DNA from: Candidatus Avispirillum sp.
Lineage (GTDB): Bacteria > Bacillota > Clostridia > Oscillospirales > CAG-272
Assembly: GCA_045597805.1 (NCBI GenBank)
Contig: JAZLKW010000024.1
Span: 1-52,644 of the forward strand
DNA length: 52,644 nt
Direction of reading: 5' to 3'
Each line of letters begins with the position of its first letter. Position 1 is the first letter of the stretch. Positions 4,825 through 16,136 of this stretch are shown piece by piece. Made by a program: the position numbers and the translations under genes. Under the pieces are notes generated by a model. It saw only the letters and a list, made by a program, of their open reading frames with translations, was not told where the DNA came from and did not search any database.

Positions 4825-6330
4825 TTAATCATATTTTGCGAATTCTTCGGCAAGGCGGTCGGTGTGGTTGAGCCACATATCCATCATAGCATAGTACCGC
4901 TCGTGGGTACGCCAGCCCTGGTCGATGGAGCCGCTGCCGTAATTTATTATGGTCGCGTTGGGGTAGGTGGCGCGGAGCAGGTCAACGTCCGCCTGAGAAA
5001 CGGCGGTCGATTCCAGCCACAGTCTCTCAAGCTTGGGGAGATCGAGGAGGGGCGTGATGTCCGACAGCCCGTGGTTATAGCTTATGTTCAGATCCACCAG
5101 CTGCTTGCAGGAGGCAAGCGGTGTAAGATCGGTGACGCTGTTAACGAAAAACTCAAGATAGTGCAGATGGGGAAGCTTAGCGAGGGGCGACAGGTCGGTC
5201 AGCTCATTGTCGGCAAGGATCAGAAGCCTCAATTCCGTGAGGTAGTCGCCTATAACGGAAATGTCGTTTATGCACTGGTGACCAAGGTCAAGTGCCTGAA
5301 GGTCGGTGCAGTATTTGAGCACCTGTATGTCCTGTGTGACCATAAACCTGTAATCGTAGGTGTATATGAGCACGGAGAACGCCACCTGATCGGTACGGAG
5401 CGACCAGCGCTGACCAAGGTACACTCTCCAAACTATTTTCACGTCCGGGCACTCGTCGCGCAGTTTTGCCATTTCCTCATTGGAGAGATAACAGTCGCAC
5501 ATGACAATCTTCCTCGCGCTGCAGAGTAGCGGGATCGCACGCTTTAATTCCTCCGTATGTCCGGGCATATATTTCCGGCTTATGTCAACGGTCTCAAGCA
5601 TGGAGTCCACAGGGGTACCCGCCACGTCCACAGTCCACCCGAAGATGACGTCCGGGAACTTTTCCACGAGGCTATGCTGCAGCTCCGCAGAAAGGGTCTG
5701 ACCGTGGAGATCCACAAAGGAAAGATTCGGGAAAATGGTCAGTTTTTCAGCGATGTCGCCGTCGATTTTCACGCCCTGAAGGTCGATTTTCTCCGCGTCC
5801 TCGCGGACCTTTGAGCCGTAGAGATCGTAAATGGCGACGATATTGAAATCGAGGTCGGGGAAATTGCGGCACAGCTCTTCCCTTTCCTCCGAGGGCACGG
5901 CGTTTTCACCGAGGGTCACAGTTTTCGCACGTCTGAAATAGGGGAGAAACCGCGAAAGCTCGGCTGTATCGGTGATCTCCACTGAAGACATATCAAGCTC
6001 CTCCACGTCCGTGAAGAACTCGCCTCCGTACATACGCGCAACGGCGCGGTATCTGAACTCCACTCCGGGAAATTCACAAAGAAGCGCTTCCTCCTCCGTC
6101 GCGTCCACATGATAGTCGCCCAGATCCGCCACCTTGAGGTTTTTCATGCGCCTGAGGTTTTTCCGGAGCGCTTCCGGCGACTCTATCTCGTCTCCGGAAA
6201 AGAAAACGTAGCTTTCCGCAGAGCTCACCTCGTGACCGAAAAGGTCAATATGCCCCGCGGAGCACTCGAAGCCCGCCGCGATGGCAATCACTGTCAGTAT
6301 CAGCAATATTGAAAATAAGACTTTTCTCAT
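4825..6330 (-). CDS. Exported leucine-rich repeat protein
   Basis: N-terminal hydrophobic segment; LRR units LQALDLGHQ, LRLLILADN, LHYLEFFVN, LVDLNISYN, LERLWLEST. Confidence 0.85.
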   Translation of the reverse strand: MRKVLFSILLILTVIAIAAGFECSAGHIDLFGHEVSSAESYVFFSGDEIESPEALRKNLRRMKNLKVADLGDYHVDATEEEALLCEFPGVEFRYRAVARMYGGEFFTDVEELDMSSVEITDTAELSRFLPYFRRAKTVTLGENAVPSEEREELCRNFPDLDFNIVAIYDLYGSKVREDAEKIDLQGVKIDGDIAEKLTIFPNLSFVDLHGQTLSAELQHSLVEKFPDVIFGWTVDVAGTPVDSMLETVDISRKYMPGHTEELKRAIPLLCSARKIVMCDCYLSNEEMAKLRDECPDVKIVWRVYLGQRWSLRTDQVAFSVLIYTYDYRFMVTQDIQVLKYCTDLQALDLGHQCINDISVIGDYLTELRLLILADNELTDLSPLAKLPHLHYLEFFVNSVTDLTPLASCKQLVDLNISYNHGLSDITPLLDLPKLERLWLESTAVSQADVDLLRATYPNATIINYGSGSIDQGWRTHERYYAMMDMWLNHTDRLAEEFAKYD

Positions 6331-6883: not shown

Positions 6884-7444
6884 GTGGCAAAGCGTAATTT
6901 GACCCTTGACCGTCCCACTGCGGAGCAGCTCCGTGAGGAGCTTCGGCACGAGACCGAAAAGGAACAGAAGAAAATGCGCCGTTCGATAAAAGCGGGGATA
7001 GCGTTCGCCGCCGTCGCCGTAGTGCTTGTCATCGCCCTTTGCATTTTCCCCGTTTTGGAGATCAGCGGCGGCGCCATGACGTCCTCGTATCCCGATTCGT
7101 CTGCGGTGATAGCGTTCAGGTCTCCCGTTCTGCATCACGGCAGCGTTGTCGCCTACGCCTACGGCAACAAAACGCAGGCGGGCCGGATCATAGGTCTGCC
7201 CGGTGATGTGGTAGACATCGGGCGTGACGGGAAAGTGACCGTCAACGGCGAAGAGACAGAGGAAGATTACGTAAAAGAACTCGCTTTCGGTGACTGCGAT
7301 GCTGCGCTTCCCTGCACCGTACCCGAGGGACGGTATTTCGTTCTCGGTGATGACAGAGAGAACGCTCTCGATTCGCGGAATAAGAAGGTCGGCTGCATAG
7401 ACAAAAGCCAGATCGAAGGCGTGATTTTAGTCAGGATAAAATAA
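6884..7444 (+). CDS. Signal peptidase I (S26) homologue, predicted catalytically inactive
   Basis: TM helix, RIIGLPGD and YFVLGDDRENALDSR boxes present, but GxSM reads GGAM and KR reads GR. Confidence 0.85.
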   Translation: MAKRNLTLDRPTAEQLREELRHETEKEQKKMRRSIKAGIAFAAVAVVLVIALCIFPVLEISGGAMTSSYPDSSAVIAFRSPVLHHGSVVAYAYGNKTQAGRIIGLPGDVVDIGRDGKVTVNGEETEEDYVKELAFGDCDAALPCTVPEGRYFVLGDDRENALDSRNKKVGCIDKSQIEGVILVRIK

Positions 7445-7468
7445 AAAAGCCCCAAAGGGGCTTTTTTT
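7443..7468. terminator. Bidirectional intrinsic terminator
   Basis: AAAAAAGCCCC-AAA-GGGGCTTTTTTT. Confidence 0.8.
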
Positions 7469-7671: not shown

Positions 7672-9438
7672 TCATTTCGCGCGGGTCTCGATTTCCTCGG
7701 CGACCATCCTGATGAAGTCGTCGGCGGACATGACCTCGTTGGCAACGGTGTCGCGGCGGCGGACGGAAACGGTGCCGTCCTCCTGCTCCTTATCGCCGAT
7801 AATGAGCATATAGGGGACCTTGGAAAGCTGTGCTTCGCGGATCTTGAAGCCGGTCTTTTCCTGGCGCTTGTCAGATACGCAGCGGATGCCCTGCTTCTTC
7901 ATCTTCGCGATAAGCTCGTCCACGTACTCGTTGTTTCTGTCGGTGATGGGAAGCACCTTTACCTGGCAGGGAGCCAGCCACGTGGGGAATTTACCGCCGA
8001 AGTGCTCGATGATGACGCCGATGAATCTTTCAACGGAGCCGAACACGACGCGGTGGATCATTACGGGGCAATGCTTCTCGCCGTCGGAACCGGTATACTC
8101 AAGGCCGAATCTGCCGGGGAGCTGATAGTCAAGCTGGATGGTACCGCACTGCCACGTTCTGCCCAGGCTGTCCTGGATATGGAAGTCAAGCTTCGGGCCG
8201 TAGAATGCGCCGTCGCCCACGTTGATGATATATTCCTTGCCGATGCTGGTAATGGCGTCAGCAAGCGCGGACGTTGCGATCTCCCAGTCCTTCTCGTCAC
8301 CGATGTGGTCCTCGGGCATGGTGGAAAGCTCTATCTTATAGGGCAGTCCGAACAGAGAATAAACCTCGTCGAACAGCTGTGCGATGCGGATGACCTCGTC
8401 CTTTATCTGCTCGGGAGCAAGGAGGATGTGGGCATCGTCCTGAGTGAAGCAGCGGACACGGAACAGACCGTGCAGAGCGCCGGAAAGCTCGTGGCGGTGT
8501 ACTCTGCCCAGCTCGCCGTAACGGAGAGGAAGCTCCTTATAGGAGTGGGGCTCCAGCTGATAAACGAGAATGGAGCCGGGGCAGTTCATGGGCTTGACAG
8601 CGAAGTCCTCCTCGTCGATAACGGTGGTGTACATGTTTTCCTTGTAGTGATCCCAGTGGCCGGAGGTCTCCCACAGAGTTCTCTTCATGATCTGGGGGGT
8701 GGAGATCTCAAGATAATCCCACTTTTCGTGGACCTCGTGCCAGTAGTCAAGAAGGGTGTTTCTGAGGATCATACCGTTGGGCAGGAAGAAAGGCATTCCG
8801 GGAGCCTCGTCGCGCAGAGCGAACAGTCCCATTTCCTTACCTAATTTTCTGTGGTCGCGCTTCTTCGCTTCCTCGATCTTGTTGATGTACTCTTCAAGGT
8901 CTGCCTTGGAGGAGAACGCCGTGCCGTAAATTCTAGTCAGCATCTTGTTCTTTTCGCTGCCGCGCCAGTACGCGCCCGCAACGCTTAAGAGCTTGAATGC
9001 CTTGACGGCGGAGGTGTAGGTGACGTGAGGGCCTGCGCACAGGTCAACGTAGTCGCCCTGCTTGAAGAAGGACAGCTCCTCGTCCTCGGGCAGATCGTTG
9101 ATAAGTTCTACCTTGTAGGGCTCGCCCTTTTCTTCCATGAGCTTTATCGCCTCGGCGCGGGGCAGAGTGAAGCGCTCCATCTTGAGGTTTTCCTTGACGA
9201 TCTTCTTCATCTCAGCCTCGATAGCCTCAAGCTCCTCGTCTGCGAAGGGAGTCTCGCGGTCAAAATCGTAGTAGAAGCCGTCCTTGATGGAGGGGCCTAT
9301 CGCAAGCTTGGTGTCGGGATAGAGGCGTTTTACAGCCTGCGCCATGATGTGGGACGCCGTGTGACGGAGGGCGCCTGCGCCTATCTCTTCTTCAAAGGAA
9401 TGCTCTTCGACACTCCCGTCGTGCATGATTACTTTCAT
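7672..9438 (-). CDS. thrS: Threonine--tRNA ligase
   Basis: RHTASH, DLCAGPHV, RDHRKLG, KPMNCPG, GAFYGPKLD and MIHR motifs. Confidence 0.98.
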   Translation of the reverse strand: MKVIMHDGSVEEHSFEEEIGAGALRHTASHIMAQAVKRLYPDTKLAIGPSIKDGFYYDFDRETPFADEELEAIEAEMKKIVKENLKMERFTLPRAEAIKLMEEKGEPYKVELINDLPEDEELSFFKQGDYVDLCAGPHVTYTSAVKAFKLLSVAGAYWRGSEKNKMLTRIYGTAFSSKADLEEYINKIEEAKKRDHRKLGKEMGLFALRDEAPGMPFFLPNGMILRNTLLDYWHEVHEKWDYLEISTPQIMKRTLWETSGHWDHYKENMYTTVIDEEDFAVKPMNCPGSILVYQLEPHSYKELPLRYGELGRVHRHELSGALHGLFRVRCFTQDDAHILLAPEQIKDEVIRIAQLFDEVYSLFGLPYKIELSTMPEDHIGDEKDWEIATSALADAITSIGKEYIINVGDGAFYGPKLDFHIQDSLGRTWQCGTIQLDYQLPGRFGLEYTGSDGEKHCPVMIHRVVFGSVERFIGVIIEHFGGKFPTWLAPCQVKVLPITDRNNEYVDELIAKMKKQGIRCVSDKRQEKTGFKIREAQLSKVPYMLIIGDKEQEDGTVSVRRRDTVANEVMSADDFIRMVAEEIETRAK

Positions 9439-9463
9439 CTTTTATATCTCCTGTTTTTAATAA

Positions 9464-9492
9464 ATTATATTCGTTTTCGGTGCGGATCACAA
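9464..9492 (-). promoter_or_regulatory. Possible internal promoter directly upstream of thrS
   Basis: TTGTGA-17bp-TATAAT on the minus strand. Confidence 0.4.
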
Positions 9493-9512
9493 AACTCCGC
9501 TTTGCATGTAAA

Positions 9513-11864
9513 TCATTTCCCCCAGCGGTGGCCGTTCAGGTATATCTGTACCATGGGGGTCTTATCAAAGCTGATAGTGCCGGGAAGGTGCATCGCACCC
9601 GCGTTTTCGGGGCCGGTCAGCATTATCGAGTTCGACTTGATGTAGTTATAAAGCCAGGTGTATCTCTCCTCATAGAGAGCGCGGGAGGCGCTGTCGCCGT
9701 TTGTATACAGTCTGTCATATGCGGCGGAAAGTCCCAGCATCTCGCAGTTCATCAGCAGGTTATTGAGACACCCCGTGCAGTTCGGGCTGTCGCACTCATC
9801 CATCGCCGCCACGATCTCCGCTCGCATTTCTTCGTAGTGAGCATTGAGATAGGATTCCGAATACGCGTCGAAGGGACGGTAGAAGTACGCGCCGCAGACT
9901 GTATCATCCTGTTCGGACGCCTCGTCCAGATAGCAGATGTAGTTGTAGATATGCTCGTAGCCCGCGCCGTATTTCACACGGAGGAACTTCTTCATCATTG
10001 CCACGTACTCGTCAAAGGTCATCGAGGGGTTCCACATGACCTCGGAGGCGAGGAATGCGTTCATATCGCAGAAGGTATATTCGGGGCCGCCGGCCTGGAC
10101 GCCCTCGTAATAGAAGCCCACGACGCCCTGCTCGCACATCCACGTGATATCGTAGTAGATGTCGAAGAACTTGGGCATATCGACGATATAGAACAAGTAG
10201 TTTTCGGGATAGTACCAGGTATAGATCTGTGCGCCTGCCTCGCGGCAGATCTCGCCCCAGTTTCTGATAGCTTCAGCATCCTGCTTTGCGCTGTGGGTAT
10301 CGGCATTAATGGGGGCGCATTTGTCGGGATCGGCAAGGCGGCATTTGGTACATCCGGAAATGTTGTCGCAGTAGCAGAGCACCATATTCTCGCGGGGACG
10401 CACGCTTTCGGGCACAGTACCGTCATAGAGAATGGAGAATATCTGAACGTCTGGATATATCTCCTTTATCCTGTCGGCGGCACGGATTATCATAGCCAGA
10501 TACGTGCCGGAATAGCTTTCCTTTTTGAAGGTCACGCTCTTTTCGTCCTCGGACAGCTCGTAGTATCCGACGTAATTTGCAAGGTGATCCTTCTGTGAGC
10601 CGCGGAGCCTTACCGTTGTGCCGTTGGCCTTTGCGTTGCAGAGAGAGCATTTGCAATAGTCGGGGTTATCGTTTATGGAGAACGAGAGCATATGGCAATC
10701 CTTCGCGAAATTGAGGGTCTTCCCTCTCGCCCTCAGCATTTCCACAACGTCAAGCATGCCCGAATAAAGCGTTTCGAACACACTGTCATCGGAGGCGCAT
10801 GGCTGTATTGATATGGAATCGGCGGCGCTCGCTCCTCCGCCGTTCAGGAATTTCTGATAGTACCTGTCGGCCAGGGACATGACCGTGCCGTCGGGGTTCA
10901 GCGTTCCCTCGGGAGGCATTTCGCCCTCGCCCATGGGCTTATAATACCAGAAGGAATGGGCATTGAGCATCTGCGGGCCCACAAAGCTGCCGTAATAGCT
11001 TTCGGGGTTTATCTCAACGTGGATATTATTGATATGGCGTGCAAGTGCATAGTATTCCATTGTGCTCCCGCCACCGAAGGTATGCATACAGAAACGGTTT
11101 TTGGTGGGAGTTCTGAAATAGAAATCGGTACCCTCGGGGATATCGGAAGCTCTCAGCTTTTCGCTGTGAGTGAAATTGGCGCTGCAGAAGAACACGCCCA
11201 GATATTTTTCGAGGATATCGTATGCGGCGTACATATTGCCTCTCGTGGCGCCGTATATTTCGAGATCTCCGTTTTCGACCTTATACTCGTAGCCGTCGGG
11301 ACCCAGCTTTTCGCCCAGCTCGGTATCGAGGGGAACGCTGTGGAGCCTTATGGCTTGACCCTCGCAGTCGCCGTAGACCTTGGGCAGGGTGAAGCCGGTC
11401 ATCTTCTCTATGTATTTCAGTAAAAGCTCGTAGGCGAAATAAATATTGTCGTTATAGCCTGCGTCGGCGGGGAGCACGAGAGAATACTCCGAAATATCGT
11501 TGCCGCCGATGGTGAACTTATACACTCTTTCGCCGTTCTCGAAGGAGGCTGTATCGGTGACCCCGGCGAGGCACGCCTTGATATAGAAATTATCCTTCGA
11601 GGTGATCCTGCCGTCGGCGTCGAGGTCGGCGGCGGACTTATTTATCTCGGGGTCAAATCCCGAAACATAGCGCACGATAAGCGCGCCGTCGCGGGCATTG
11701 ACGGCGCCGTCGTCGTCGGTGTCGCCTACCTTATAGGAATCGGTCTGCCAGAACGACTGGTTTATCCTCAGGTTGTCTTCACCTTTCGTGTCGTCAGCAA
11801 GCACGGGCAGGCACATTGCCGCCAGCATGGCCATGACGAGAAGCGCGGAAATTAATCTTTTCAT
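9513..11864 (-). CDS. Secreted dockerin + DUF4838-like protein (tandem paralogue 2)
   Basis: Signal peptide MKRLISALL; dockerin GDTDDDGAVNARD...ADLDADGRITSKD; GATRGNMYAAYDILE; NDNPDYCKCSLC; VMWNP...YGAG. Confidence 0.85.
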   Translation of the reverse strand: MKRLISALLVMAMLAAMCLPVLADDTKGEDNLRINQSFWQTDSYKVGDTDDDGAVNARDGALIVRYVSGFDPEINKSAADLDADGRITSKDNFYIKACLAGVTDTASFENGERVYKFTIGGNDISEYSLVLPADAGYNDNIYFAYELLLKYIEKMTGFTLPKVYGDCEGQAIRLHSVPLDTELGEKLGPDGYEYKVENGDLEIYGATRGNMYAAYDILEKYLGVFFCSANFTHSEKLRASDIPEGTDFYFRTPTKNRFCMHTFGGGSTMEYYALARHINNIHVEINPESYYGSFVGPQMLNAHSFWYYKPMGEGEMPPEGTLNPDGTVMSLADRYYQKFLNGGGASAADSISIQPCASDDSVFETLYSGMLDVVEMLRARGKTLNFAKDCHMLSFSINDNPDYCKCSLCNAKANGTTVRLRGSQKDHLANYVGYYELSEDEKSVTFKKESYSGTYLAMIIRAADRIKEIYPDVQIFSILYDGTVPESVRPRENMVLCYCDNISGCTKCRLADPDKCAPINADTHSAKQDAEAIRNWGEICREAGAQIYTWYYPENYLFYIVDMPKFFDIYYDITWMCEQGVVGFYYEGVQAGGPEYTFCDMNAFLASEVMWNPSMTFDEYVAMMKKFLRVKYGAGYEHIYNYICYLDEASEQDDTVCGAYFYRPFDAYSESYLNAHYEEMRAEIVAAMDECDSPNCTGCLNNLLMNCEMLGLSAAYDRLYTNGDSASRALYEERYTWLYNYIKSNSIMLTGPENAGAMHLPGTISFDKTPMVQIYLNGHRWGK

Positions 11865-11926
11865 ATTTGTTTTATCGGGCATATAGCTTTTTAACTTTTG
11901 TTATTACCGTTTGTACCGCTATATCG

Positions 11927-14284
11927 TCAGCTCCAGCGGCGCTCGCTCTTGTATATCTGCACCAGAGGGGACTTGTCAAAACTGACGGAGGCGGGGAGGA
12001 AAAACGCGTCTGCATTGTCCGAGCCGGTCAGCTTTGATACGTTTGCTCTGATATAATTATAGAGCCAGATATATCTTTCCTCATAGAGTGCGCGGGAGGC
12101 GGCATCTCCGCTTACATACAGTCTGTCATATGCGGCGGAAAGTCCCAAAAATTCGCAGTTCATCAGCATATTATTAAGGTTCCACATGCAGTCCGGGTTG
12201 TCGCACTCCGCGATCGCCGCCGTGATCTCCGCTCTCATATCCTCATAATGAGCATCGAGATAAGACTTTGAGTACACGTCGAAGGGACGGTAGTAGAATG
12301 CGCCGCAGCAGTTATCGGACCACTGCTCGGACGCTTCGTCCAGAATACAGATGTAGTTATAGATATGCTCGTACCCCGCGCCGTATTTCACGCGGAGGAA
12401 TTTTTTCATAAGTCCCACGTACTCGTCAAAGGTCATCGAAGGGTTCCACATGACCTCGGAAGCGAGGAACGCGTTCAGGTCGCAGAGAGTGTATTCCGGG
12501 CCGTTTGACTGGACGCCCTCGTAATAGAAGCCTACGACGCCCTGCTCGCTCATCCATTTGATATCGTAATAGATATCGAAAAACTTGGGACTGTCGACGA
12601 TGTAATAAGTATAGTTTTCGGGGTAGTACCAGGAATAGAGCTGTGCTCCCGTTTCACGGCAGATTTTGCCCCAGTTACTTATTGCCTCCGCGTCGAATTT
12701 CGCGGTGTGGGTATCGGCATTGACGGGAGCGCACCCGTCGGGATCGGAGAGGCGGCATTTGGTACAGCCGGAGATGTTGTCGCAGTAGCAGAGCACCATA
12801 TTTTCGCGGGGACGTACGCTTTCGGGGACTCTGCCGTCGTAGAGAATGGAGAATATCTGAACACCGGGGTATATCTCACGTATCCTGTCGGCGGCGCGGT
12901 CTATCATCGCCATATATGTTCCGCAGGTGTTCTCTTTCTTGAAGGTGACGCTCTTTCCGTCCTCGGACAGCTCATAGTAGCCTGTATAGTTTTCCAAATG
13001 CGCTTTCTGATTGCCGCGGAGCCGGACCGTCCCTCCGTTGGTCTTCGCGCTGCAGAGAGAGCATTTGCAGTAGTCGGCGTTATCGTTTATGGAGAAGGAG
13101 AGCATATGGCGGTTCTTCGCGAAATTGAGGGTCTTCCCTCTCGCTTTCAGCATCTCGATAACGTCAAGCATGCCGGAGTAAAGCGTTTCGAACACGCTGT
13201 CGTCGGAGGCGCAGGGCTGGCCTGCGTTTGCATCGGTGACGGTGGTGCCGCCGCCGCTTAAGAATTTCTGATAATATCTGTCGGCAAGGGACATTACGGT
13301 GCCGTCGGTGTTAAGCGTTCCCTCCTCGGGCATGATACCCTCGCCCATGCACTTATAGTACCAGAACGAATGGGCATTGAGCATCTGTGCACCAACGTAG
13401 TAGCCGTAGTAGCTTTCGGGGTTGAGCACCCGGCTCAGGTTGTTCTGGTGACGGGCAAGCGCGTAGTGCTCGGTGGTGCTCTCGTTTCCGAAGGTGTGCA
13501 TGCAGAAGCGGCACACAGTGGGGGTGGTGAAACAGAAATCTGTGCCCTCGGGGATATCGGAATATCTCAGCTTTTCGCTGTGGGTGTAGCTGATATTGCA
13601 GAAAAACACGCCCAGATATTTCTCAAGGATGTCGTACGCGGCGTACATATTACCTCTCGTGGCGCCGTATATTTCGAGGTTTCCGTTTTCGACCTTATAC
13701 TCGTAGCCGTCGTCGCCCAGCACCTCTCCGTACTCGGAATCGAGGGGCACGCTGTGGAGGCGGATAGCCCTTCCGTCATAGTCGCCGTAGACCTTCGGCA
13801 GGGTGGTGCCGGTCATCTTCTCAATATATTTCAGAAGCAGCTCGTAGGCGAAATAGATATTATCGTTATAATTGGCGTCTTTCGGGAGCACCAGAGTGTA
13901 TTCGGAAATATCGTTGCCGCCGATAGTGAATCGGTATACTCTCTTTGAGTTATCGAAGGAGGCTATATCGGCGACCTCCGCGAGGCACGCCTTGATATAG
14001 AAATTATCCCTCGAGGTGACTTTGCCGTCGGCGTCGAGGTCGGCGGCGGACTCGTTTATCACGGGATCGAATCCCGACACGAATCGTACGATAAGCGCGC
14101 CGTCGCGGGCATTGACAGCACCGTCATCGTCAGCGTCTCCCGCCTTATAGGAATCGGTCTGCCATATCGGCTGGTTTATTTTCAGGTTGTCTTCTCTTTT
14201 CCAGTAGCCGTCGGCGGCAAAAACGGGCAGGCATAGTGCTGCCGTCATAATAAGAACGAGGATCAAGGAAATTAATCTTTTCAT
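11927..14284 (-). CDS. Secreted dockerin + DUF4838-like protein (tandem paralogue 1)
   Basis: Collinear with and highly similar to 9513-11864; GGAGG RBS. Confidence 0.88.
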   Translation of the reverse strand: MKRLISLILVLIMTAALCLPVFAADGYWKREDNLKINQPIWQTDSYKAGDADDDGAVNARDGALIVRFVSGFDPVINESAADLDADGKVTSRDNFYIKACLAEVADIASFDNSKRVYRFTIGGNDISEYTLVLPKDANYNDNIYFAYELLLKYIEKMTGTTLPKVYGDYDGRAIRLHSVPLDSEYGEVLGDDGYEYKVENGNLEIYGATRGNMYAAYDILEKYLGVFFCNISYTHSEKLRYSDIPEGTDFCFTTPTVCRFCMHTFGNESTTEHYALARHQNNLSRVLNPESYYGYYVGAQMLNAHSFWYYKCMGEGIMPEEGTLNTDGTVMSLADRYYQKFLSGGGTTVTDANAGQPCASDDSVFETLYSGMLDVIEMLKARGKTLNFAKNRHMLSFSINDNADYCKCSLCSAKTNGGTVRLRGNQKAHLENYTGYYELSEDGKSVTFKKENTCGTYMAMIDRAADRIREIYPGVQIFSILYDGRVPESVRPRENMVLCYCDNISGCTKCRLSDPDGCAPVNADTHTAKFDAEAISNWGKICRETGAQLYSWYYPENYTYYIVDSPKFFDIYYDIKWMSEQGVVGFYYEGVQSNGPEYTLCDLNAFLASEVMWNPSMTFDEYVGLMKKFLRVKYGAGYEHIYNYICILDEASEQWSDNCCGAFYYRPFDVYSKSYLDAHYEDMRAEITAAIAECDNPDCMWNLNNMLMNCEFLGLSAAYDRLYVSGDAASRALYEERYIWLYNYIRANVSKLTGSDNADAFFLPASVSFDKSPLVQIYKSERRWS

Positions 14285-14410
14285 ATAACCTCCGGTTTAT
14301 ATGTAATGGCTTTTCTGAAACTTATCTGTCTCCCGCCAAGTACCGGGAAAATGGAGCATATGGCTCTCCGTACGTCCGCATCGCTTACAGCGGGATATTT
14401 TCATCGGTAA

Positions 14411-14618
14411 CAAAAACGCACCCCTGCTTTCGCAAGGGTGCAGATTTACACGGTTCCACCTTGAATTTAACTCAAAACTCCCATAACGCGGGAAAGCGGT
14501 ATGCTCATCACATACGGCTCGGGAGTGGTCTTCACGGTGTTCTGCACAACGGGACTTTCAGCCCACGGTCCCGTCTCTCTTGGTGCTTTGCGCCGCTACT
14601 CTTTCCGTCACAGCCTTT
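14411..14618 (-). ncRNA. T-box riboswitch with Thr (ACC) specifier
   Basis: On the minus strand: GA motif GCTGTGACGGAAAGAGTAG, AGAGA box, GGGCTGAAA distal loop, specifier GAAG-ACC-ACTC (14527-14529), T-box AATTCAAGGTGGAACCGTG, terminator TGCACCCTTGC-GAAA-GCAGGGGTGCG-TTTTT. Confidence 0.92.
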
Positions 14619-14623
14619 ATTTA

Positions 14624-14651
14624 ATTATAGTACGATTTCCCCTTTTGTCAA
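14624..14651 (-). promoter_or_regulatory. Sigma-A promoter of the T-box leader
   Basis: TTGACA-16bp-TATAAT immediately before the T-box 5' end. Confidence 0.8.
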
Positions 14652-14681
14652 GAGGAAATTTCGGCATCAGGCGGCCTGCGT

Positions 14682-16136
14682 TTACCTCTTCGTCCACGTT
14701 GTGGGGATGAAGGCTATCATCATGGGGAGTATCTCAAGACGTCCGAACAGCATCGCCGCAGAGAGGACTATCTTCGACACGCCCGAATAAGCATGGAAAT
14801 TACCCGAAGGGCCGATAAGCTGTCCCAGACCGGGGCCCACGTTATTGAAGCAGGTCACCGTGGCGGTGATATTGGTTTCAAGATCAAAGGAGCCGGGGTC
14901 GAAGCTGAGCAGGAGAAATACAACTCCCATACAGAGGATGTACAGAGAGAAATAGTTGCTGACGGAGCGGAGCACGTCCTTTTCCACCGTCTTCCCCTCC
15001 AGCTTTACGGCACTGACGGAGCGGGGATGGATAAGGTGAAGGAACTCGTTTCTCATCATCTTGAACAGGAGCATGACGCGGGACATTTTAAGTCCGCCCG
15101 CGGTAGAGCCGGCACATCCTCCCAGAAACATAAGCACGAAGAGCAGAGCTCGCGAAGCGCCCGGCCACAGGTTGAAGTCCGTCGTGGCATAGCCCGTGGT
15201 TGTTACGATAGATGCGGTCTGGAACGAAGCGCTTCTAACCGCATCAGAGAAATTGCCGAAAAGGTGATAGATATTTACCGTGATGATCGCGACGGAGGCA
15301 AGCACGATGCAGAGATAAGTCCACAGTTCGGAGCTTTTCAGGGCATCCTTTACCTTACGGACCAGGATGAGGTAATACAGATTGAAGTTCACGCCGAACA
15401 GCAGCATAAAGACAACGATTACCCATTGGCTGTACGGGGAAAAGGCGCCGATGCTCGCCGCCCTCGTGCTGAAGCCGCCGGTACCGGCGGTACCGAAGGC
15501 GTGGACCACGCTCTCAAAAAAGCTCATATCTCCCGCCCACAGGAGAATGATCTCCGCGACGGTGATGACGATATATATGAGATACAGTATCTTTGCCGTG
15601 TCCTTGACGCGGGGCACCAGTTTACCGATTATCGGTCCGGGCATCTCGGCGCGTATAATATGGATGGAGCGGTCGGAGACGTTGGGTACTATGGCCATGA
15701 TGAACACCAGAACGCCCATACCGCCGACCCAGTGGGTGAAGCTTCTCCAGAAGAGAGCCGCGTGGGTGAGGGATTCTATGTCCGTAAGTATGGACGAGCC
15801 CGTGGTGGTAAAGCCGCTGACCGTCTCGAAAAAGGCGTCGATATAGTGAGGGATATCGCCGGATATGACGAAGGGCACGGCGCCGATGGCGGACACCGCG
15901 ATCCACGTGAGAGCCACTATGACGAAGCCCTCTTTGGCGTATATGACGTGATTCTTCGTTCTGCAGACAAGAAGAATGAGAGTGCCAAGGACTGCCGCCC
16001 CCGCCGCGGTGACGGTAAAGGACATTGTCGCGATCCGCTCGCCGTATATAAGTGACACCGCCAAAGGCAGAAGCAGCAGCGCCGCTTCGATCAGGACCAG
16101 CTGCCCCACGGTGTAGAAAACCATTCTGCGGTTCAT
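14682..16136 (-). CDS. trkH: Trk potassium uptake membrane subunit
   Basis: FFETVSGFTTTG, TGGFS, TTTGY, GSTAGGLK, NNVGPG and GRLEI motifs. Confidence 0.95.
   Translation of the reverse strand: MNRRMVFYTVGQLVLIEAALLLLPLAVSLIYGERIATMSFTVTAAGAAVLGTLILLVCRTKNHVIYAKEGFVIVALTWIAVSAIGAVPFVISGDIPHYIDAFFETVSGFTTTGSSILTDIESLTHAALFWRSFTHWVGGMGVLVFIMAIVPNVSDRSIHIIRAEMPGPIIGKLVPRVKDTAKILYLIYIVITVAEIILLWAGDMSFFESVVHAFGTAGTGGFSTRAASIGAFSPYSQWVIVVFMLLFGVNFNLYYLILVRKVKDALKSSELWTYLCIVLASVAIITVNIYHLFGNFSDAVRSASFQTASIVTTTGYATTDFNLWPGASRALLFVLMFLGGCAGSTAGGLKMSRVMLLFKMMRNEFLHLIHPRSVSAVKLEGKTVEKDVLRSVSNYFSLYILCMGVVFLLLSFDPGSFDLETNITATVTCFNNVGPGLGQLIGPSGNFHAYSGVSKIVLSAAMLFGRLEILPMMIAFIPTTWTKR

Follow-up and report, generated by a model that had tools for sequence, protein, structure and literature searches.

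Among described systems, the closest counterparts of the element analysed here are the canonical T-box leaders of threonyl-tRNA synthetase genes in Firmicutes, e.g. those of thrS and thrZ in Bacillus subtilis. T-boxes as a class were surveyed in 2008, and in the part of that survey consulted here the genes following them are assigned to tRNA ligases (62%), biosynthesis (18%) and transport (12%), with 8% (71 genes) being of unknown (54) or unrelated (17) function (PMC2494555). With these 8% of odd targets, that part of the survey provides a precedent for T-box control of unexpected genes. Our subject is a T-box operon in Candidatus Avispirillum sp. (G000), a metagenome-assembled genome (MAG) that is 78.5% complete; the window, i.e. 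the whole stretch of DNA analysed, is its complete contig C24 (JAZLKW010000024.1, 52,644 nucleotides, nt). Here, a T-box leader with a threonine specifier is separated from thrS by two paralogous genes, which encode predicted secreted dockerin proteins with a DUF4838 domain. Genome comparison shows this tandem pair to have been inserted between the T-box terminator and the ribosome-binding site of thrS in the common ancestor of G000 and its sister species G008 (96% complete). We consider it most likely that a T-box operon has captured the two genes in this way and that their link to threonine is a tolerated by-product of the insertion (regulatory capture), not evolved foraging.

The operon would be transcribed in the order promoter, T-box, gene 1, gene 2 and thrS, all of which lie on the minus strand. 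With charged tRNA-Thr, transcription would stop at 14442-14417, whereas uncharged tRNA-Thr would pair with the ACC specifier and, via its U73-CCA end, with the UGGA bulge of the leader. This pairing would stabilize the antiterminator, and polymerase would read through both enzyme genes into thrS, such that the enzymes are probably switched on together with thrS under threonine shortage. The features of this unit are the following:

14651-14624, minus strand: operon promoter, TTGACA and TATAAT with a 16-nt spacing, 12/12 consensus matches (sigma-70)
14620-14431, minus strand: T-box leader, comprising Stem I, a short Stem II, the IIA/B region and the T-box sequence (cmscan, RF00230)
14529-14527, minus strand: specifier ACC (model alignment and sequence)
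14458-14452, minus strand: T-box bulge UGGAACC, 7 nt (read from the sequence)
14409-14442, minus strand: T-box terminator, with an 11-pair stem at 14442-14417 followed by TTTTTG (terminator scan)
about 126 nt, minus strand: spacer between the terminator and gene 1 (sequence)
9454-14410, minus strand: inserted segment of about 4.96 kb (blastn against G010 and G008, and junction alignments)
11927-14284, minus strand: gene 1, signal peptide, type I dockerin and DUF4838, 785 amino acids (aa) (Pfam)
9513-11864, minus strand: gene 2, which is paralogous to gene 1 and has 783 aa when read from the ATG at 11864; the longest open reading frame (ORF) starts at 11882 and has 789 aa (Pfam, N-terminal alignment)
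9492-9464, minus strand: promoter-like TTGTGA and TATAAT with a 17-nt spacing, 10/12 matches, not conserved in G008
7672-9438, minus strand: thrS, 588 aa, single copy (Pfam)
7443-7467, both strands: bidirectional terminator with an 11-pair stem and T runs on both strands, which ends the operon

Insertion of a gene pair between T-box and thrS

The neighbourhood of thrS was compared with that in eight congeners, whose thrS is 75-98% identical. All eight carry a T-box on the thrS strand, and in seven of them (G010, G014, G004, G011, G005, G007 and G021) 59-183 nt separate the end of the T-box model from thrS; the corresponding distance amounts to 4857 nt in G008 and 4992 nt in G000. A short gap between T-box and thrS (55-57 nt) is also seen in two relatives at the level of the order, G028 and G037. 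Metagenome contigs were scanned with a motif of the specifier region, which gave 81 stretches, and the 80 loci listed were examined; 21 of these loci have a UGGA-type bulge within 200 nt of the motif. In 18 of the 21, thrS begins 158-485 nt past the motif, the other three have less than 340 nt of downstream sequence, and a match to DUF4838 or the inserted genes was found in none of the 21. Within the genus, the inserted pair is present in two of 32 genomes, i.e. in G000 and G008 only. A previous sequence-only reading of the window had described two dockerin-DUF4838 paralogues followed on the same strand, about 5 kb on, by thrS, and had proposed that the pair was inserted into the thrS leader. 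The gene order is borne out by Pfam and by the thrS start at 9438, and the insertion by the close spacing of T-box and thrS in the congeners, order-level relatives and metagenome loci just listed.

The extent of the insert emerges from blastn of the window against the outgroup congener G010, where the T-box is aligned and followed after 56 nt by thrS, with the window being 4957 nt longer (about 9454-14410). According to the junction alignments, its left edge lies just past the U run of the terminator, and its right edge precedes the ATG of thrS by about 15-40 nt. Over 4.8 kb, the window is collinear with the G008 contig (84.5% nucleotide identity). The flanks show synteny among G000, G008 and G010, with trkA and trkH upstream and a signal peptidase gene downstream:

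17508-16150, minus strand: trkA, upstream flank (Pfam)
16136-14682, minus strand: trkH, upstream flank (Pfam)
6884-7444, plus strand: signal peptidase gene, convergent and sharing the terminator at 7443-7467 (Peptidase_S26 match)

The thrS identities, i.e. 98% between G000 and G008 (synonymous divergence, dS, 0.40) and 94% between either of them and G010, make G000 and G008 sisters, so that one insertion on their common stem suffices. Genes 1 and 2 are 79% identical to each other and each is 86-87% identical to its orthologue in G008, which places the duplication before the split of the two species. As to the source of the insert, the nearest paralogues within the genus are only 48-49% identical, a protein (P0004) in a large protein collection reaches 61%, and a scan of genome contigs returned only the contig of G008. 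The insert has a G+C content of 52.5% (window 53.0%), and neither a target-site duplication nor terminal repeats were seen by eye at the junctions.

A DUF4838-family gene is also found just downstream of thrS in G014, G007 and G011, none of which carries the insertion. As a candidate for a second link to the T-box it was rejected for G014 and G007, where a strong terminator intervenes; the gene in G007 is also located behind a 10/12 promoter-like site, and that in G011 is on contig C110.

The same arrangement in G000 could be produced by an assembly artefact, i.e. a MAG contig that wrongly joins the T-box to paralogous genes, and this is where the incompleteness of the MAG and the large size of the paralogous family have to be considered. 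In addition, contigs of two public runs (X1 and X3) join 10576 to 13319, thereby skipping 2742 bases, with a shorter side of 29-31 letters; this joint may be a paralogue recombinant, a strain variant or a chimeric unitig. Against such an artefact speaks the independently assembled contig of G008, another species, which has T-box, gene 1, gene 2 and thrS in the same order. Moreover, public contigs bridge the thrS-side junction (X1 record 1, 9111-9486; X5 record 17, 9254-9502), and a further one (X1 record 7, 13547-14420) spans gene 1 into the terminator. We regard an artefact as extremely improbable. The sequence-only reading had itself named mis-assembly at the junctions as a point to be checked, and on the thrS side the bridging contigs speak against it; on the T-box side (about 14410), none of the public contigs listed, all of them short, bridges the junction by at least 31 letters on both sides, though the G008 contig agrees with the arrangement there.

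Both the inserted genes and the T-box bear traces of selection after the insertion. Compared with its G008 orthologue, gene 1 has a ratio of nonsynonymous to synonymous divergence (dN/dS) of 0.097, and gene 2 one of 0.141; values as low as these indicate working genes, and the sequence comparison shows both of them to have been under purifying selection since the species split. In the T-box, four of the 42 pairs have changed on both sides between G000 and G008 with pairing kept, and, with G010 as the outgroup, three of these four changes can each be placed on one of the two branches after the split. Judged by these paired changes, the comparison also shows that the structure of the T-box has been maintained after the insertion.

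A T-box for tRNA-Thr with a reduced Stem III

The Rfam T-box model RF00230 covers 14620-14431 over its full length (model positions 1-219) with 78.6 bits and an E-value of 2.6e-17 (cmscan, window), the E-value in the whole-genome search being 1.5e-17. Since the gathering score of RF00230 is 93, a default Rfam search of the window at this score yields no match and the T-box is found only in a search by E-value. The score deficit is due to the region of Stem III, which is deleted in the model alignment, and to a shortened Stem II; judged by eye, no more than a mini-hairpin of three pairs (GAG..UUC) could form in the place of Stem III. Stem III with its flanking purines is described, in the part of a review consulted here, as belonging to the unit that senses aminoacylation (PMC7583486). 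The reduced form is common to all nine thrS leaders of the genus, with the orthologous leaders of the eight congeners scoring 55.1-78.4 bits. As congener leaders that adjoin thrS share it, the reduced Stem III and the low score are, by this comparison, a trait of the lineage and not decay following the insertion. A practical consequence is that default annotation misses the thrS T-boxes of this genus (55-79 bits), and the operon would look unregulated.

The specifier loop GAA-G-ACC-A aligns to the specifier position of the model, with the purine A following ACC. The T-box sequence, a kink-turn (K-turn), an AGAGA bulge and an F-box (GCGUUA) are also recovered by the model alignment. Inspection by eye shows the antiterminator helices CAAGG/CCUUG and GUGU/GCAC flanking the bulge UGGAACC, and the terminator strand GCACCCUUG is common to the antiterminator helices A1 and A2, such that the two pairings are mutually exclusive; the 5' strand of the terminator overlaps the antiterminator. 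The genome's own tRNA-Thr(GGU), encoded on contig C82, and its tRNA-Thr(CGU) both end in U73-CCA. The UGGA of the bulge pairs with the U73-CCA of tRNA-Thr(GGU), in which U73 is complementary to the A, and the other T-boxes of G000 with a visible bulge carry UGGU or UGGC. Specifier ACC and bulge UGGA are kept in all nine thrS T-boxes of the genus, and across these nine leaders 18 of 42 predicted pairs show compensatory changes, with pairs in Stem I covarying. By these structural and comparative features, the leader is a genuine transcription-terminating T-box with a predicted specificity for tRNA-Thr(GGU).

In the sequence-only reading, the leader had been called a complete T-box with an ACC specifier fitting thrS and a terminator. 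Specifier and terminator have held up, with the Infernal alignment to the Rfam model placing ACC at the specifier position. The assignment to thrS agrees with the conservation of ACC in the thrS leaders of the genus and with the matching tRNA-Thr(GGU) of the genome itself. Completeness does not stand, given the score below the Rfam cut-off and the reduced Stem III.

In the whole G000 assembly there are seven T-box matches, among which, by eye, only that of the thrS operon has a threonine specifier. Three others are located 25-53 nt before aminoacyl-tRNA synthetase genes, i.e. two of the class I I/L/M/V type and one pheS, and two precede transporter genes, one for a sodium:solute symporter and one for an ATP-binding cassette (ABC) binding protein plus permease. 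Yet another precedes the gene of an AMP-binding enzyme, the stop codon of which overlaps the start of a GH2-like gene. This last operon, on contig C26 (40600-45001), has a T-box with 109.3 bits and, by eye, a UAC specifier; its AMP-binding enzyme has 546 aa, and its GH2-family glycosidase-like protein has 556 aa and is encoded by a gene overlapping that of a short-chain dehydrogenase. It is the second T-box operon in G000 that contains a glycosidase-like gene.

Promoters, terminators and the transcription unit

Promoters were searched for as sigma-70 consensus sites, of which about six per 8 kb are expected by chance. The promoter at 14651-14624, already pointed out in the sequence-only reading, matches the consensus in 12 of 12 positions; a 12/12 promoter is likewise found before the T-box of G008, and the hexamers are invariant in the alignment of G000, G008 and G010. 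Further statements of that reading were that no strong terminator separates the genes and that 14285-14410 contains no clear promoter. Our scans concur: the sigma-70 scan of the minus strand found no promoter-like site within 14285-14410, and between the T-box terminator and the terminator at 7467-7443 this strand has just weak 5-pair terminator-like matches, all inside coding sequence. What had been overlooked is that the 74 nt separating gene 2 from thrS contain a promoter-like site (9492-9464). The -10 element of this site aligns with the old leader as seen in G010 and its -35 element aligns with nothing in G008 or G010; the site may add T-box-independent expression of thrS in G000.

The unit of G008 is more compact: about 45 nt lie between its terminator and the start of gene 1, gene 2 follows 43 nt after gene 1, and thrS 38 nt after gene 2. 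On its coding strand, the 12/12 promoter is the sole promoter-like site and the T-box terminator the sole terminator-like site of the whole unit, i.e. the sigma-70 scan found no promoter-like site before thrS. Because thrS is essential, present once in G008 and has no visible promoter of its own there, transcription must cross both inserted genes in order to reach it. These promoter and terminator predictions strongly point to control of the inserted genes by the T-box, most clearly in G008, and we infer co-transcription of the three genes and their induction by threonine limitation. Among the public runs listed as containing sequence from 9300-14700, none is an RNA run.

It is conceivable that the parts are uncoupled in spite of their order, with the inserted genes being served by an unrecognized promoter of their own, thrS by the promoter at 9492-9464, and the T-box playing a minor role or being a relic. 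In G000, such uncoupling could draw on the 10/12 promoter-like site before thrS as well as on the 126-nt spacer before gene 1, which has room for a promoter of a kind that a sigma-70 scan does not recognize. This spacer is not conserved, however, its counterpart in G008 being only about 45 nt long, and a coding-strand promoter-like site before thrS is also missing in G008. Moreover, the T-box promoter has 12/12 matches in both species, and since the insertion the T-box has retained specifier, bulge and terminator and has acquired compensatory changes, neither of which is to be expected of a relic. Altogether, uncoupling seems very unlikely to us. The G000 spacer between terminator and gene 1 shows no significant fold (z -0.55), and for the three intergenic pieces of the G000 operon the rest of the genome contains no significant copy.

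On the opposite, i.e. plus, strand, hairpins at 14021-14050 and 11608-11635 (11-12 pairs plus a T-rich tail) are the strongest terminator-like structures in the region. They occupy corresponding positions in the two paralogues, antisense to the sequence that encodes the dockerin, and may stop antisense transcription or may just reflect the internal repeat of the dockerin.

The inserted genes and their products

Both products show matches above the Pfam cut-offs to Dockerin_1 (PF00404; 37.3 bits for gene 1, 41.5 bits for gene 2) and DUF4838 (PF16126; 82.9 and 84.4 bits, respectively, with a cut-off of 26.6 bits), with the latter matches spanning profile positions 86/92-323 of 325. By eye, both proteins have a signal-peptide-like N-terminus (MKRLIS...), the start of gene 2 at ATG 11864 having been chosen by the N-terminal match to its paralogue and to the G008 orthologue. 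A profile made from the alignment matches solved dockerins down to an E-value of 7.8e-12, and the assembly contains six cohesin matches above cut-off. A sequence search of solved structures found no DUF4838 chain and matched the dockerin only.

According to the part of PMC10570127 consulted here, DUF4838 is very diverse, distantly related to glycoside hydrolase (GH) family GH20 and constitutes the catalytic domain of two families. In GH163, BT1035 is an endo-hexosaminidase that cuts the bond between N-acetylglucosamine (GlcNAc) and mannose (Man), GlcNAc-beta1,2-Man, in complex N-glycans; in GH185, Sp_0475 is a 6-sulfo-GlcNAcase with O-glycans as its probable substrate (PMC10570127). An AlphaFold2 model of the gene 1 product, based on 35 sequences, has a predicted local distance difference test (pLDDT) value of 88.3 and a predicted template-modelling (pTM) score of 0.87. 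The solved folds closest to this model are GH115 (E 3e-13, template-modelling (TM) score 0.46), followed by GH84 O-GlcNAcases, GH138 and GH67. From domains and model, the products are predicted to be secreted, dockerin-bearing, glycoside-hydrolase-like proteins of the GH163/GH185 type.

In this genus, the DUF4838 family is greatly enlarged: G000 has 27 matches and G005, with the highest number, 49. Proteins with the combination of signal peptide, dockerin and DUF4838 are often encoded in tandem arrays, e.g. on contig C94 of G005 and contig C4 of G021, and at an E-value of 1e-10 or below this family was not found in 15 of 16 other sampled genera of the order.

The product of thrS has the domains tRNA-synt_2b (PF00587, 151.5 bits), HGTP_anticodon (PF03129, 78.6 bits) and tRNA_SAD (PF07973, 52.6 bits), and there is one thrS match in the G000 assembly. 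This threonyl-tRNA synthetase is just 588 aa long, and Pfam finds no N-terminal TGS domain in it. Both carriers of the insertion have threonine synthase (thrC) and homoserine dehydrogenase (hom), with matches to thrB remaining below cut-off; with thrC and hom present, threonine auxotrophy is not indicated. Farther away, the minus strand carries at 4825-6330 an ORF of 501 aa with leucine-rich repeats (LRR_4, 63.1 bits), which lies downstream of the gene for signal peptidase.

Tolerated by-product or foraging response

An important question is whether the coupling of the two enzymes to threonine supply is of use to the cell. Scavenging of threonine-rich glycoproteins and passive hitch-hiking had both been named as possibilities in the sequence-only reading. 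In an adaptive version of the same operon, threonine starvation would induce hexosaminidase-like surface enzymes, which would strip glycans from host glycoproteins, for instance mucins rich in threonine and serine, and thereby open them to proteolysis and recovery of amino acids. Several observations are in line with such a role: the characterized DUF4838 enzymes of GH163 and GH185 act on host-type glycans, at least in the part of PMC10570127 consulted; DNA of G000 occurs in gut metagenome runs from several studies, including runs from mouse gut; the genome encodes cohesins that would serve surface display; and the arrangement has persisted in two species that differ by a thrS dS of 0.40, with the inserted genes being under purifying selection. 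Persistence, however, is equally expected if loss of the insert would harm the expression of thrS. Moreover, the family has 27 matches in G000, of which just a single pair is tied to the T-box, and this in just two of 32 species, auxotrophy is not indicated for either carrier, and the threonine content of the two proteins (5.0-5.1%; mean of long ORFs 5.7%) is ordinary. Overall, the evidence leans towards hitch-hiking, and we consider the adaptive version rather unlikely. Under regulatory capture, the inserted genes would be hard to lose, as they lie between an essential gene and its only promoter.

Several findings weigh against a captured operon under T-box control and should be seen together. 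At the level of the leader, the model alignment lacks Stem III, the score does not reach the Rfam cut-off of 93, and four predicted pairs standing in G000 are unpaired in G008, one of these four being due to a gap in the alignment. With regard to transcription and translation, the promoter scan covers sigma-70-type sites, with its rate of chance sites as given above; the 10/12 site directly before thrS may partly uncouple this gene in G000; and gene 2 of G000 has no obvious Shine-Dalgarno sequence. To these comes the lack, among the public contigs listed, of one that bridges the T-box-side junction by 31 or more letters on both sides.

As the states before and after the insertion are both preserved in related species, the locus shows how the regulon of a riboswitch can gain unrelated genes. 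The route is an insertion into the short stretch that separates the terminator from the start codon of a gene that is essential, with the consequence that the insert could hardly be lost or silenced later on without an effect on thrS. The outcome, i.e. secreted, dockerin-borne, glycosidase-like enzymes of a gut bacterium being placed under a signal of amino-acid starvation, would be an unusual one. If the adaptive version were true after all, this would be the first known case of extracellular glycoside hydrolases being governed by an amino-acid sensor of the riboswitch type. Among the papers listed in a literature search, in which those on DUF4838 were judged by title and the start of the abstract and which did not cover the list of unrelated genes of PMC2494555, none was found to connect T-boxes with glycoside hydrolases, dockerin proteins or DUF4838. 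In one paper that mentions the genus, the passage concerned does not address function.

Comparison with known systems

With canonical thrS T-boxes and the RF00230 model, the leader shares the ACC specifier followed by a purine, the K-turn, the AG bulge, a bulge that pairs with the NCCA end of the tRNA, an antiterminator and a terminator that exclude each other, and an operon that includes a synthetase gene. In contrast to canonical thrS T-boxes, 4.96 kb with two genes for predicted secreted enzymes precede thrS here, Stem III is reduced and the score of 78.6 bits falls short of 93.

The predicted products resemble GH163 and GH185 enzymes in matching PF16126 well above its cut-off and, as far as the model goes, in a multi-domain fold of the GH20/GH84/GH67/GH115 type. 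Unlike BT1035, which has an F5/F8 module, and Sp_0475, which is cytoplasmic, they combine an N-terminal signal peptide with a type I dockerin. At the level of sequence, the type I dockerin module together with cohesins encoded in the same genome is also what is found with dockerin proteins of the cellulosome type. Compared with the genes of odd function that follow T-boxes in the 2008 survey, as far as the part consulted describes them (PMC2494555), the present case differs in that the origin of the arrangement is resolved as a dated insertion into the leader of an aminoacyl-tRNA synthetase gene, that the aminoacyl-tRNA synthetase gene has been kept in the distal position and that the genes taken up encode predicted extracellular, glycoside-hydrolase-like proteins.

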